Part shown: one piece after another, positions 9,682 to 32,630 of the stretch
How positions within the stretch are numbered: the stretch's first letter is position 1
How the letters are laid out: every line of letters begins with the position of its first letter
Position numbers and translations under genes: made by a program
Assembly: GCF_054482595.1 (NCBI RefSeq)
Contig: NZ_CM137008.1
DNA: 64,000 nucleotides
Direction: 5' to 3' (one strand)
Notes under the pieces: generated by a model
What the model saw: the letters and a program-made list of their open reading frames with translations, nothing else
Database searches by the model: none
Told to the model about the DNA's origin: nothing

Positions 9682-10679
9682 TGGAGCGTAAAGGAATTAT
9701 CGCCGCAGGCAATATGTTGGTTGACCACGTCCATCAGATTATCCAGTGGCCAGAGCGCGGCTGGCTGGCGGAGATCACCCACAGCGAACGCTCCACCGGC
9801 GGTGCGCCGCTTAACGTCCTGCTGACGCTGGCGAAAATGCGCACCGGGCTGCCGTTACAGGCGGTTGGGCTAATCGGTCAGGACAGCGACGGCGATTACA
9901 TCATGGCGATGCTTGAGCAATATCACGTCAATCGTCAGCATGTGCAGCGCACTACCTTTGCCCCGACGTCGATGTCGCAGGTGATGACAGACCCAAGCGG
10001 GCAGCGGACGTTTTTCCATTCGCCGGGTGCAAACAGACTTTTGGATCTTCCGGCGTTCGATCAGCTCGATAACACCATGAAGATTTTCCATCTCGGCTAT
10101 TTACTGTTGCTCGACAGCCTGGATATGCCGGACGATGTTTACGGCACCCGTAGCGCACGCCTGCTGGCGCAAATGCGTGATACTGGCTTTGAAACCTCAC
10201 TCGACCTGGTCTCCCGTAAGGGCGATCCGCGTTATCAGCCGCTGGTGCTGTCCGCGTTGCGCCATCTGGATTATCTGGTAATTAACGAACTGGAGGCCGG
10301 GGAGTTTAGCGGGCTGGAAATTCGGTTACCCAACGGCGAACCGCATATCGCGCATATTGCTGCCGCCGCGCGTGAACTGTTAGATGCGGGCGTGCGCCAG
10401 CGGGTGGTGATCCACTGCCCGGAAGGGGCGTGGGGAGAGACCCCAGAACAGGGCGGCGTGTGGATCCCTTCGCAAAAGTTAGAACAACGGGAAATTATCG
10501 GCAGCGTCGGCGCGGGCGATGCATTTTGTGCCGGATTTTTATATGGCTGCCATGAACGCTGGACGCTTACCGAGAGCATCAAACTGGCACACGCCTGCGC
10601 GCGGGCAAGCCTGTTATGCGCCAATGCCATCGACGGGGCGAAAACGCTGGAAGAGCTGCAAACAGAAATGTCGGATTAA
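9678..10679 (+). CDS. PfkB/ribokinase-family carbohydrate kinase
   Basis: 333 aa; C-terminal signature GSVGAGDAFCAGF and N-terminal TGGAPLNV; start overlaps the aldolase stop (ATGA). Confidence 0.8.
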   Translation: MMERKGIIAAGNMLVDHVHQIIQWPERGWLAEITHSERSTGGAPLNVLLTLAKMRTGLPLQAVGLIGQDSDGDYIMAMLEQYHVNRQHVQRTTFAPTSMSQVMTDPSGQRTFFHSPGANRLLDLPAFDQLDNTMKIFHLGYLLLLDSLDMPDDVYGTRSARLLAQMRDTGFETSLDLVSRKGDPRYQPLVLSALRHLDYLVINELEAGEFSGLEIRLPNGEPHIAHIAAAARELLDAGVRQRVVIHCPEGAWGETPEQGGVWIPSQKLEQREIIGSVGAGDAFCAGFLYGCHERWTLTESIKLAHACARASLLCANAIDGAKTLEELQTEMSD

Positions 10680-11383
10680 TGCACGTCGGCAGCGAAGACA
10701 TACCCCAGACCGCGCAGAGTTTTAATCAACATCGGCTGATGCGGGTTGAGTTCGATTTTGCGTCGTAAGCGCATGATTAATACGTCGATGGTGCGATCAA
10801 ACACCTCCACGCTGTCGCTGTGGGTGAACGCCAGCAACTGCTCGCGGCTCAATACCCGACGCGCGTTTTGCGCCAGAGCCAGTAACAAGCCATATTCGCC
10901 CTGAGTTAACTCGACATGTTGCTGAAGCGGATTGTGCAACTGGCAGCGCATGGTATCGAGATACCAGCCATTGAATGACAGCCCGGCGCTTTTCTCGTCA
11001 TTAACCGCCAGCGCACCAACCCGTCGCAACACCGCTTTCAGTCGTGCGACCACCACCCGCGGGGTGAACGGTTTGCAGATGTAATCATCCGCGCCCATTT
11101 CCAGCCCGACCACCACATCAGACTCACTGCCCATGCCGGTCAACATCACCACCGGCAATGTCGGACGCAGTTTCTGGATTTGCTGCAATACCCTCAGGCC
11201 GTTGGTATCGGGTAGCATCATATCCAGCACCACCAGCGCAATGTCAGGATCGCCCTCAATACGCAATATGGCCTCCTGTCCGGTATGGCAGACTGAAACC
11301 GTAAAGACATGTTCACTTAACACGTCCTGCAACAGTGCGCAGATAGCCGTGTCATCATCCACCACCAGCACGACGGGTTTCAT
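10676..11383 (-). CDS. OmpR/PhoB-family response regulator (receiver + winged-helix DNA-binding domain)
   Basis: Receiver motifs VLVVDDD and LDMMLPDTNG, winged-helix C-terminus (LRGLGYVF); start at ATG 11383 with GGAG SD (ORF track starts 18 nt upstream); stop codon overlaps the kinase stop. Confidence 0.85.
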   Translation of the reverse strand: MKPVVLVVDDDTAICALLQDVLSEHVFTVSVCHTGQEAILRIEGDPDIALVVLDMMLPDTNGLRVLQQIQKLRPTLPVVMLTGMGSESDVVVGLEMGADDYICKPFTPRVVVARLKAVLRRVGALAVNDEKSAGLSFNGWYLDTMRCQLHNPLQQHVELTQGEYGLLLALAQNARRVLSREQLLAFTHSDSVEVFDRTIDVLIMRLRRKIELNPHQPMLIKTLRGLGYVFAADVH

Positions 11384-18707: not shown

Positions 18708-18836
18708 AATGTCTGCCGCGTGATGGCTGTCACGCGGTATTTCGTTTCGTCACGTCAAAACTGACGACAGCCTGTTTTTCGTCAGAGTTTTGAATAAATA
18801 GTGCCCGTAATATCAGGGAATGACCCCAAATAAAAT

Positions 18837-18853
18837 GTGGCATAAAAGATGCA
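18837..18853 (+). promoter_or_regulatory. Sigma-54 (-24/-12) promoter of fdhF
   Basis: TGGCAT-N6-TGCA with canonical GG-to-GC spacing, ~50 nt upstream of the fdhF ATG; upstream gtcacg/cgtcaaaa/tgacgac repeats (18745-18790) fit the FhlA UAS known for fdhF. Confidence 0.5.
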
Positions 18854-18904: not shown

Positions 18905-21052
18905 ATGAAAAAAGTCGTCACGGTTTGCCCCTATTGCGCATCAGGTTGCAAAATCAACCTGGTCGTCGATAACGGCAAAATCGTCCGGGCGGAGGCAGCG
19001 CAGGGGAAAACCAACCAGGGTACCCTGTGTCTGAAGGGTTATTATGGCTGGGATTTCATTAACGATACCCAGATCCTGACCCCGCGCCTGAAAACCCCCA
19101 TGATCCGTCGCCAGCGTGGCGGCAAACTCGAACCTGTTTCCTGGGATGAGGCACTGAATTACGTTGCCGAGCGCCTGAGCGCCATCAAAGAGAAGTACGG
19201 TCCGGATGCCATCCAGACGACCGGCTCCTCGCGTGGTACGGGTAACGAAACCAACTATGTAATGCAAAAATTTGCGCGCGCCGTTATTGGTACCAATAAC
19301 GTTGACTGCTGCGCTCGTGTCTGACACGGCCCATCGGTTGCAGGTCTGCACCAATCGGTCGGTAATGGCGCAATGAGCAATGCTATTAACGAAATTGATA
19401 ATACCGATTTAGTGTTCGTTTTCGGGTACAACCCGGCGGATTCCCACCCAATCGTGGCGAATCACGTAATTAACGCTAAACGTAACGGGGCGAAAATTAT
19501 CGTCTGCGATCCGCGCAAAATTGAAACCGCGCGCATTGCTGACATGCACATTGCACTGAAAAACGGCTCGAACATCGCGCTGTTGAATGCGATGGGCCAT
19601 GTCATTATTGAAGAAAATCTGTACGACAAAGCGTTCGTCGCTTCACGTACAGAAGGCTTTGAAGAGTATCGTAAAATCGTTGAAGGCTACACGCCGGAGT
19701 CGGTTGAAGATATCACCGGCGTCAGCGCCAGCGAGATTCGTCAGGCGGCACGGATGTATGCCCAGGCGAAAAGCGCCGCCATCCTGTGGGGCATGGGTGT
19801 AACCCAGTTCTACCAGGGCGTGGAAACCGTGCGTTCTCTGACCAGCCTCGCGATGCTGACCGGTAACCTCGGTAAGCCGCATGCGGGTGTAAACCCGGTT
19901 CGTGGTCAGAACAACGTGCAGGGTGCCTGCGATATGGGCGCGCTGCCGGATACGTATCCGGGATACCAGTACGTGAAAGATCCGGCTAACCGCGAGAAAT
20001 TCGCCAAAGCCTGGGGTGTGGAAAGCCTGCCAGCGCATACCGGCTATCGCATCAGCGAGCTGCCGCACCGCGCAGCGCATGGCGAAGTGCGTGCCGCGTA
20101 CATTATGGGCGAAGATCCGCTGCAAACTGACGCGGAGCTGTCGGCAGTACGTAAAGCCTTTGAAGATCTGGAACTGGTTATCGTTCAGGACATCTTTATG
20201 ACCAAAACCGCGTCGGCGGCGGATGTTATTTTACCGTCAACGTCGTGGGGCGAGCATGAAGGCGTGTTTACTGCGGCTGACCGTGGCTTCCAGCGTTTCT
20301 TCAAAGCAGTTGAACCGAAATGGGATCTGAAAACGGACTGGCAAATCATCAGTGAAATCGCCACCCGTATGGGTTATCCGATGCACTACAACAACACCCA
20401 GGAGATCTGGGATGAGTTGCGTCATCTGTGCCCGGATTTCTACGGTGCGACTTACGAGAAAATGGGCGAACTGGGCTTCATTCAGTGGCCTTGCCGCGAT
20501 ACTTCAGATGCCGATCAGGGGACTTCTTATCTGTTTAAAGAGAAGTTTGATACCCCGAACGGTCTGGCGCAGTTCTTCACCTGCGACTGGGTAGCGCCAA
20601 TCGACAAACTCACCGACGAGTACCCGATGGTACTGTCAACGGTGCGTGAAGTTGGTCACTACTCTTGCCGTTCGATGACCGGTAACTGTGCGGCACTGGC
20701 GGCGCTGGCGGATGAACCTGGCTACGCACAAATCAATACCGAAGACGCCAAACGTCTGGGTATTGAAGATGAGGCATTGGTTTGGGTGCACTCGCGTAAA
20801 GGCAAAATTATCACCCGTGCGCAGGTCAGCGATCGTCCGAACAAAGGGGCGATTTACATGACCTACCAGTGGTGGATTGGTGCCTGTAACGAGCTGGTTA
20901 CCGAAAACTTAAGCCCGATTACGAAAACGCCGGAATACAAATACTGCGCCGTGCGCGTCGAGCCGATCGCCGATCAGCGCGCCGCCGAGCAGTACGTGAT
21001 TGACGAGTACAACAAGTTGAAAACTCGCCTGCGCGAAGCGGCACTGGCGTAA
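18905..21052 (+). CDS. fdhF: Formate dehydrogenase H, selenocysteine-containing (UGA at codon 140 recoded as Sec)
   Basis: Two in-frame ORFs (18905-19324, 19373-21052) separated only by TGA 19322-19324 in the conserved CCARV-U-HGPSVAG context; N-terminal Fe-S motif CPYCASGCK; 715 aa total. Confidence 0.9.
19322..19366 (+). other. Selenocysteine UGA codon plus SECIS stem-loop
   Basis: tgacacggcccatcggttgcaggtctgcaccaatcggtcggtaatggcg: hairpin immediately 3' of the in-frame UGA, matching the fdhF SECIS as I recall it. Confidence 0.8.
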
Positions 21053-21838: not shown

Positions 21839-22105
21839 AGGCCTGATAAGACGCGTTAAGCGTCGCATCAGGCGTTGATGTCGGATGCGGCGTAAACGCC
21901 TTATCCGACCTACAAAATCACGCTAAATCAGGCTATTGCGCTGTCTGGCGTAGGCCTGATAAGACGCGGCAAGCGTCGCATCAGGCGTTGATGTCGGATG
22001 CGGCGTAAACGCCTTATCCGACCTACAAAATCACGCTAAATCAGGCTATTGCGCTGTCTGGCGTAGGCCTGATAAGACGCACCAGCGTCGCATCAGGCAT
22101 CCACA
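21839..22105. repeat. BIME/REP array: 113-bp unit tandemly repeated (2 full copies plus a partial third)
   Basis: Unit aggcctgataagacgcg...cgtcgcatcaggcgttgatgtcggatgcggcgtaaacgccttatccgacc... recurs with starts at 21841, 21954 and 22067; contains canonical REP palindromes. Confidence 0.85.
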
Positions 22106-32526: not shown

Positions 32527-32630
32527 TTGCCGGATGCGAGTCGGTAACGGTTTGTAGGCCTGATAAGACGCGACAGCGTCGCATCAGGCATTGATTGCCG
32601 GATGCGGCGTATAACGCCTTATCCGGCCTA
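32527..32630. repeat. REP/BIME elements downstream of acs
   Basis: gccggatgcg..., aggcctgataagacgcg...cgtcgcatcaggc and gccggatgcggcgtataacgccttatccggcc palindromic units. Confidence 0.75.

Follow-up and report, generated by a model that had tools for sequence, protein, structure and literature searches.

Match of a UGA-interrupted fdhF gene in an E. coli genome to the known selenocysteine recoding site and its SECIS hairpin

The stretch of DNA analysed here (64,000 nucleotides, hereafter the window) contains a gene that the open reading frame list gives as two pieces, 18905-19324 (+, 139 aa plus TGA) and 19373-21052 (+, 559 aa), and the question raised by this locus is whether the TGA between them is a nonsense mutation that has destroyed the gene or a codon that is read as selenocysteine (Sec). 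Translation in one frame showed both pieces to lie in the same frame with no frameshift between them; positions 18905-21052 (+) form a single frame of 716 codons that ends with TAA, and the TGA at 19322-19324, codon 140, was shown to be the only internal stop. The second listed ORF begins at 19373 because the first ATG is found there, and the frame is open from 19325. The split of fdhF by a lone in-frame TGA, as given in the preliminary description, was thereby borne out, and the frameshift named there as a possible refutation was not found between the two ORFs. We regard it as practically certain that the window is E. coli chromosome, that 18905-21052 is the fdhF gene and that UGA140 is read as selenocysteine by means of a SECIS directly 3′ of it, and is no nonsense mutation. 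The two features concerned are the following:

18905..21052, + strand: fdhF CDS (formate dehydrogenase H, 715 residues including Sec140), based on the reading frame, TIGR01591, identity to PDB chains and the RefSeq CDS
19322..19324, + strand: UGA codon 140, recoded as selenocysteine, based on alignment with X140 in the PDB and on PMC4513850

For comparison with protein profiles, Cys was put in place of Sec at codon 140 of the query protein. The product scored 1095.7 bits against NCBIfam TIGR01591 (formate dehydrogenase subunit alpha, a Mo-bisPGD oxidoreductase; cut-off 666.25), with residues 6-685 aligned to profile positions 1-672 of 672, and stayed well under the cut-offs of FDH-N alpha, NapA, NasC and other related families. 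Besides, it showed 100% identity over residues 1-715 with the proteins named ‘formate dehydrogenase H’ in PDB 1AA6, 1FDI, 1FDO, 2IV2 and 7Z0T. In 1aa6_A, residue 140 is given as X (non-standard), matching the TGA in the window, and the other 714 residues were identical; in this alignment the metal-ligand position of FdhF, 140, at which Sec or Cys was looked for, was found to be taken by the UGA codon. On DNA level, fdhF from the window was 100% identical to many complete E. coli RefSeq genomes, in which it is annotated as fdhF, and the gene was found in 5419 of 5426 complete E. coli genomes. Positions 1-50000 of the window differed by three bases from E. coli strain XH990, and the RefSeq fdhF CDS of this near-identical strain was found at coordinates exactly equivalent to 18905-21052. 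The neighbourhood of fdhF was canonical (mdtN-mdtO-mdtP, fdhF, yjcO, gltP, nrfGFEDCBA, acs). Profile score, PDB identity and RefSeq name agree with the gene name that had been proposed from the letters of the sequence. Within the formate hydrogenlyase pathway, FdhF provides formate dehydrogenase H with its catalytic subunit.

These identities bear directly on the explanation that the TGA arose by a true nonsense mutation or by a sequencing error and that fdhF is a pseudogene lying in two dead pieces. A mechanical ORF list does give two pieces, as this explanation would have it, but the 575 codons past the TGA encode a sequence 100% identical to that of the crystallised functional enzyme, and in the solved structure the residue encoded at the TGA, 140, is a non-standard one. 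Furthermore, of 5420 E. coli records, 5415 matched the 131 bp around the UGA with an identity of 99% or more. When positions are numbered from the U of the UGA as position 1, so that positions 1-42 correspond to 19322-19363, the most divergent record (strain 14EC007) showed four synonymous substitutions, at -3, 45, 63 and 78, and none within the hairpin positions 1-42. One fdhF feature was present under the match in every RefSeq record listed, in some of them with a name including ‘selenocysteine-containing’, and the feature tables of three of them (XH990, 14EC007 and K-12 MG1655) gave fdhF as a CDS that is not flagged as a pseudogene. For XH990 the whole gene was seen as one CDS of 2148 bases; in K-12 MG1655 and 14EC007 the CDS lay partly outside the stretch viewed. 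The concern that automated annotation could mis-call this gene as a pseudogene is therefore well founded for naive ORF callers but moot for current RefSeq/PGAP records, because these list fdhF as one CDS. A pseudogene is, in our judgement, extremely improbable here, and the hairpin that follows the TGA adds to the evidence against it.

This hairpin was recognised in two extents:

19317..19371, + strand: full SECIS hairpin (outer 5-bp helix, lower stem and upper stem-loop, with the UGA in the 5′ arm), based on Rfam SECIS_2
19336..19352, + strand: minimal SECIS, positions 15-31 from the U of UGA, based on pairs, invariance, covariation and PMC8659212

An all-Rfam covariance-model scan gave a single SECIS hit in the 64-kb window. 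Rfam SECIS_2 (RF01988) matched 19317-19371 (+) with 87.1 bits, well above its gathering score of 70, and covered model positions 1-55 of 55; the E-value was 1.1e-18 for a search of 4 kb and 1.8e-17 when the whole window was searched; a SECIS above the curated Rfam threshold thus lies exactly where recoding requires it, which argues against a dead gene. Membership of SECIS_3 (RF01989) was also considered and rejected, since this model gave a weak overlapping match at 19319-19377 with 35.8 bits, short of its gathering score of 63.

Numbered from the UGA, the sequence reads UGACACGGCCCAUCGGUUGCAGGUCUGCACCAAUCGGUCGGU. The upper stem was found to consist of the pairs G15-C31, G16-C30, U18-A29, G19-C28, C20-G27 and A21-U26, with U17 (19338) bulged and unpaired. 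The apical loop is formed by G22, G23, U24 and C25 (GGUC; 19343-19346, with G23 at 19344 and U24 at 19345), and the spacer between the UGA and the apical stem-loop is 11 nt long (positions 4-14). According to a review (PMC8659212), the SECIS of E. coli fdhF is a 17-nt upper stem-loop comprising nt 15-31, at a distance of 11 nt from the UGA; binding by SelB requires U17, G23 and U24, and the lower stem can be dispensed with. By this published definition, the apical loop at 19343-19346 is the predicted SelB-binding part. The SECIS has also been assigned to codons 141-153 following UGA140 of fdhF (PMC4513850), and these codons correspond to 19325-19363 in the window. The preliminary description had identified the stem-loop directly 3′ of the TGA as the fdhF SECIS and had placed UGA and hairpin at 19322-19366; both statements proved accurate, the former by the SECIS_2 score together with G23, U24, the bulged U17 and the 11-nt spacing, the latter by the extent of positions 1-42.

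Folding of this region had been proposed as a check, and the outcome was twofold. The MFE fold of 19322-19370 contained the hairpin, with positions 3-21 pairing with 26-42, and the published SECIS features were matched, but the folding energy did not discriminate: it was unexceptional (-14.9 kcal/mol, where shuffles averaged -13.67; z = -0.49), and 54 of 200 dinucleotide shuffles folded at least as well. A hairpin energy indistinguishable from that of shuffles is what a pseudogene might show as well; stability alone is, however, no evidence either way because of this z value. The fdhF SECIS is defined by specific nucleotides and their register and not by exceptional stability, and the case made here rests on the family model, the sequence features and covariation, the folding energy by itself being non-discriminating.

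For the analysis of covariation, a degenerate pattern for CCARV-UGA-HGP was scanned in one genome per species, which gave at least 120 loci. The loci listed (at least 120) came mostly from Enterobacterales and Pasteurellaceae and included 42 distinct 55-mers; as the retrieval pattern demanded the TGA together with CCARV-U-HGP, they are silent on the conservation of the TGA itself. When the published structure was laid over the 42 distinct sequences among the matches listed, 91.4% of cells were paired, as compared to 22-49% in controls in which the 3′ partners were slid by 1-3 columns. Double-sided pair changes were present among the matches listed, G15-C31 being replaced by U-A in eight sequences and U18-A29 by A-U in nine. 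In total, 17 compensatory cells were found in the 42 distinct sequences among the matches listed, where 3.6 were expected and none of 500 shuffles reached 17, and these changes probably go back to no more than one or two events in the evolution of the Pasteurellaceae lineage. The changes in the 3′ arm alter the protein (His149Leu and Gln150Lys) and were matched in the 5′ arm by synonymous third-position changes in Ser144 and Val145. Protein-altering changes on the 3′ side matched by synonymous ones on the 5′ side are the expected signature of an RNA helix within a coding sequence.

Invariance showed a similar distribution. U17 and the GGUC loop were invariant in the 42 distinct sequences among the matches listed, and the third positions of Ala146 (A21), Gly147 (U24) and Leu148 (G27) had an entropy of 0 in 104 distinct 105-mers among the matches listed, as compared to 1.35-1.7 bits at the four-fold sites of Ala137, Pro143, Ala156 and codon 160 in the same loci listed. 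The lower stem was imperfectly kept, and the pairs 12-34, 7-39 and 10-36 were broken in several taxa among the matches listed. This looseness of the lower stem agrees with its reported dispensability (PMC8659212).

With regard to the register of the upper stem, the covariation between these sequences supports the biochemical register, in which U17 would be bulged and U18 paired with A29, over the one drawn both in the consensus of Rfam SECIS_2 and in the MFE fold. The register of Rfam and MFE, with U17-A29 paired and U18 bulged, was tried and rejected, 9 of the 42 distinct sequences being unpaired there and none at U18-A29. A separate observation concerns Morganella, Proteus, Hafnia, Edwardsiella and some Serratia, in which a change of C30 to G (His149Gln) removes the G16-C30 pair; the MFE prediction for these taxa is an uninterrupted stem in which U17 and G30 form a wobble pair and no U is bulged. 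It could be proposed that the U17-bulged register backed by covariation holds and, jointly, that SelB in these other genomes recognises a differently shaped SECIS, but as a combined statement derived from modelled folds we consider this improbable. For the E. coli site itself, no novel reading survives.

The invariant nucleotides also bear on the explanation that the UGA is read by a near-cognate Trp or Cys tRNA without the Sec machinery, the hairpin acting by slowing the ribosome or by blocking RF2. UGA is generally known as the leakiest stop codon, and structures 3′ of stop codons can stimulate read-through in other systems. The determinants of SelB binding (U17, G23 and U24) were nevertheless invariant in the 42 distinct sequences listed, even at synonymous sites, and a non-standard residue is found at position 140 of the solved structure. 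Moreover, reconstituted translation of an fdhF fragment showed Sec insertion to depend on SelB/Sec-tRNA(Sec), with a construct without the SECIS serving as control for Sec-independent read-through (PMC4513850). Read-through of this kind is accordingly judged very unlikely at this site. The claim that the UGA is recoded as Sec and is not a nonsense codon is supported by the X at residue 140 in the PDB, by the SECIS match and by covariation.

The proposed route of recoding may be outlined as follows. The mRNA directly 3′ of the UGA would fold into the SECIS hairpin, and the apical stem-loop with its bulged U17 and the loop nucleotides G23 and U24 would, as known from the literature, be bound by the C-terminal domain of SelB. 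SelB would carry Sec-tRNA(Sec); this tRNA, the product of selC, would first receive Ser, which SelA would then convert to Sec with selenophosphate supplied by SelD. The SelB-bound hairpin would keep the factor tethered beside the ribosome arriving at the UGA. Sec would then be inserted at the UGA in the A-site, a step taken from the literature, and translation would proceed for 575 more codons. Sec140 would become the selenium ligand of the molybdenum centre and, as in the crystal structures of FDH-H, would coordinate the molybdenum of the bis-MGD cofactor. On protein level, the window encodes exactly the FdhF residues 130-179, the region that was assayed in vivo and in the reconstituted system in PMC4513850, and it is from such literature that we infer SelB binding, Sec insertion and the efficiency of recoding for the present site.

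This efficiency is limited; about 30-40% of ribosomes recode UGA140, and the rest are released by RF2, which yields a fragment of 139 residues (PMC4513850). The peptide is thus really made, and it could be argued that this N-terminal fragment is the main product, with the UGA acting in the main as a regulated stop signal and full-length FdhF being minor. The downstream 575 codons are, however, strictly conserved and encode most of the crystallised enzyme, and no function for the fragment was found in this analysis or in the literature consulted. In addition, such a view describes the inefficiency of the same mechanism and offers no alternative to recoding. We therefore give it hardly any weight, and reading of UGA140 as Sec is kept as the explanation.

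Recoding of UGA140 as Sec requires attention to the genes for the Sec machinery. No tRNA genes were found in the whole 64-kb window, and no sel genes were present in the gene list for positions 1-50000; positions 50001-64000 were scanned for tRNAs only. When 5426 complete E. coli genomes were searched with the K-12 genes as queries, selAB were found in 5425 of them, selC in 5424 and selD in 5425. None of the four sel genes having been found in the window, we deduce from this species-wide frequency that the source genome contains them, and this is very probable on account of both this frequency and the difference of the window from XH990 at only 3 of 50000 bases.

Upstream of the gene, the following candidate element was detected:

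18838..18853, + strand: sigma-54-type -24/-12 element TGGCATAAAAGATGCA, found by consensus scan, 52 nt upstream of the fdhF ATG

The sigma-54 pattern showed no enrichment, as 44.7 matches were expected in the window and 31 were found, and because of this the assignment of 18838-18853 draws on position. The element is probably the fdhF promoter; expression of fdhF is presumably dependent on sigma-54 and FhlA.

Compared with known systems, the site corresponds to UGA140 and the SECIS (RF01988) of fdhF in E. coli K-12, with the same gene at the same locus (mdtP-fdhF-yjcO-gltP) and a protein identical to PDB 1AA6. The hairpin likewise corresponds to that of K-12 fdhF, with a match to the full model and with U17, G23, U24 and the 11-nt spacing as published. 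No difference of any weight was seen; other E. coli strains differ in the 131-bp region by occasional synonymous changes, and these are located outside positions 1-42 only. In E. coli, fdnG and fdoG, which encode formate dehydrogenases N and O, work in a similar way: the Mo ligand is encoded by an in-frame UGA, and directly behind it comes a hairpin that binds SelB and contains G and U in its apical loop. Both genes lie elsewhere on the chromosome; the window, with one SECIS hit in 64 kb, contains neither of them, and the protein from the window is neither FdnG nor FdoG, because it scored 249 bits against TIGR01553 (FDH-N alpha), for which the cut-off is 814. The SECIS elements of eukaryotes and archaea similarly serve to recode UGA as Sec through mRNA structure. 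As is generally known (see also PMC9622424), those elements are located in the 3′ (or 5′) UTR, depend on a kink-turn together with SBP2 or other factors, and exert their effect from afar. Unlike them, the SECIS in the window lies inside the coding sequence and directly 3′ of the UGA. The site is thus already known and fully described as the founding example of bacterial selenocysteine insertion, and its confirmation adds nothing new to biology because it has been characterised genetically, biochemically and structurally. The result is of value for quality control only: fdhF is cut in two by a naive ORF caller, and this split should be read as recoding and not as gene decay, the recoding site being correctly recognisable from raw sequence.

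A match to fdhF was present in all but 7 of the 5426 complete E. coli genomes searched, and records typed as plasmids held 4 of the 5420 fdhF matches found in this search. A few RefSeq records, e.g., NZ_CP076230.1 and NZ_CM144251.1, named the fdhF product 'formate dehydrogenase N subunit alpha, selenocysteine-containing'. In these two records the name is a slip, because the gene encodes FDH-H.

Three sequence elements were located between mdtP and fdhF:

18716-18745: inverted repeat CCGCGTGA...TCACGCGG, rich in G+C and with a T-rich run behind it, read from the sequence directly past the mdtP stop codon
18747-18790: TCGTCA/TGACGA repeats, upstream of the sigma-54-like element
18838-18853: sigma-54-like -24/-12 element TGGCATAAAAGATGCA, 52 nt 5′ of the fdhF ATG

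The inverted repeat with its T-rich run looks like an intrinsic terminator between mdtNOP and fdhF, and the TCGTCA/TGACGA repeats resemble a binding site for an activator of the FhlA type. Matches to the sigma-54 consensus pattern were not enriched in the window (31 found vs 44.7 expected).

Besides fdhF, the window contained the following genes and RNA elements:

2242-11383: sugar-utilisation cluster, between phnP/yjdP and yjcS
21840-21910, 21953-22023 and 32557-32628, all minus strand: naRNA4 (Rfam; REP/BIME-type palindromic repeats), matches above threshold
34858-36150, plus strand: espX5, a pentapeptide-repeat T3SS effector according to its annotation, between actP and yjcE
39866-40006, plus strand: sraL (RyjA), an Hfq-binding sRNA (153 bits)
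48936-49158, plus strand: short hypothetical CDS flagged 'frameshifted' (pseudogene) in the annotation of E. coli strain XH990, whose sequence is nearly identical, between aphA and tyrB

A hybrid sensor kinase and a response regulator are encoded in the sugar-utilisation cluster, along with an ABC transporter, a D-lyxose/D-mannose isomerase, a ketose-bisphosphate aldolase and a kinase. K-12 presumably carries als/rpi genes at this site, so the cluster may be a strain-variable island. The region 8000-32000 was covered to at least 80% in only 3392 of 5426 E. coli genomes. The three naRNA4 matches lie within the yjcO-gltP and acs-yjcH intergenic spacers, and soxR (39999-40463, minus strand) converges with sraL, which slightly overlaps its 3′ end.

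In the 55 nt around the UGA, the fdhF SECIS of Morganella, Proteus, Hafnia, Edwardsiella and a Serratia sp. carried a C30-to-G change (His149Gln; SECIS positions counted from the U of UGA), by which the G16-C30 pair is lost. The MFE fold predicted for these variants has an unbroken upper stem of 6 bp with a U17-G30 wobble, and thus no bulged U; such variants may co-vary with the SelB of the same organisms. QKDT01000278.1, a 3.8-kb MAG contig labelled Desulfovibrio desulfuricans, also had an fdhF SECIS context of the enterobacterial type, with CCARV-U-HGP and a near-identical hairpin; this may reflect a binning contaminant or horizontal transfer.

For the upper stem of the fdhF SECIS in the window (19336-19352), the ViennaRNA MFE and the consensus structure of Rfam SECIS_2 agree on a U17-A29 pair with a bulged U18. 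In the cross-species alignment (42 distinct sequences from at least 120 loci), the U17-A29 register left 9 distinct sequences unpaired vs 0 for U18-A29. Judged from these aligned sequences, covariation favours the register in which U18-A29 is paired and U17 bulged. This agrees with the register reported biochemically, whereas the Rfam SECIS_2 consensus and the MFE differ from it.
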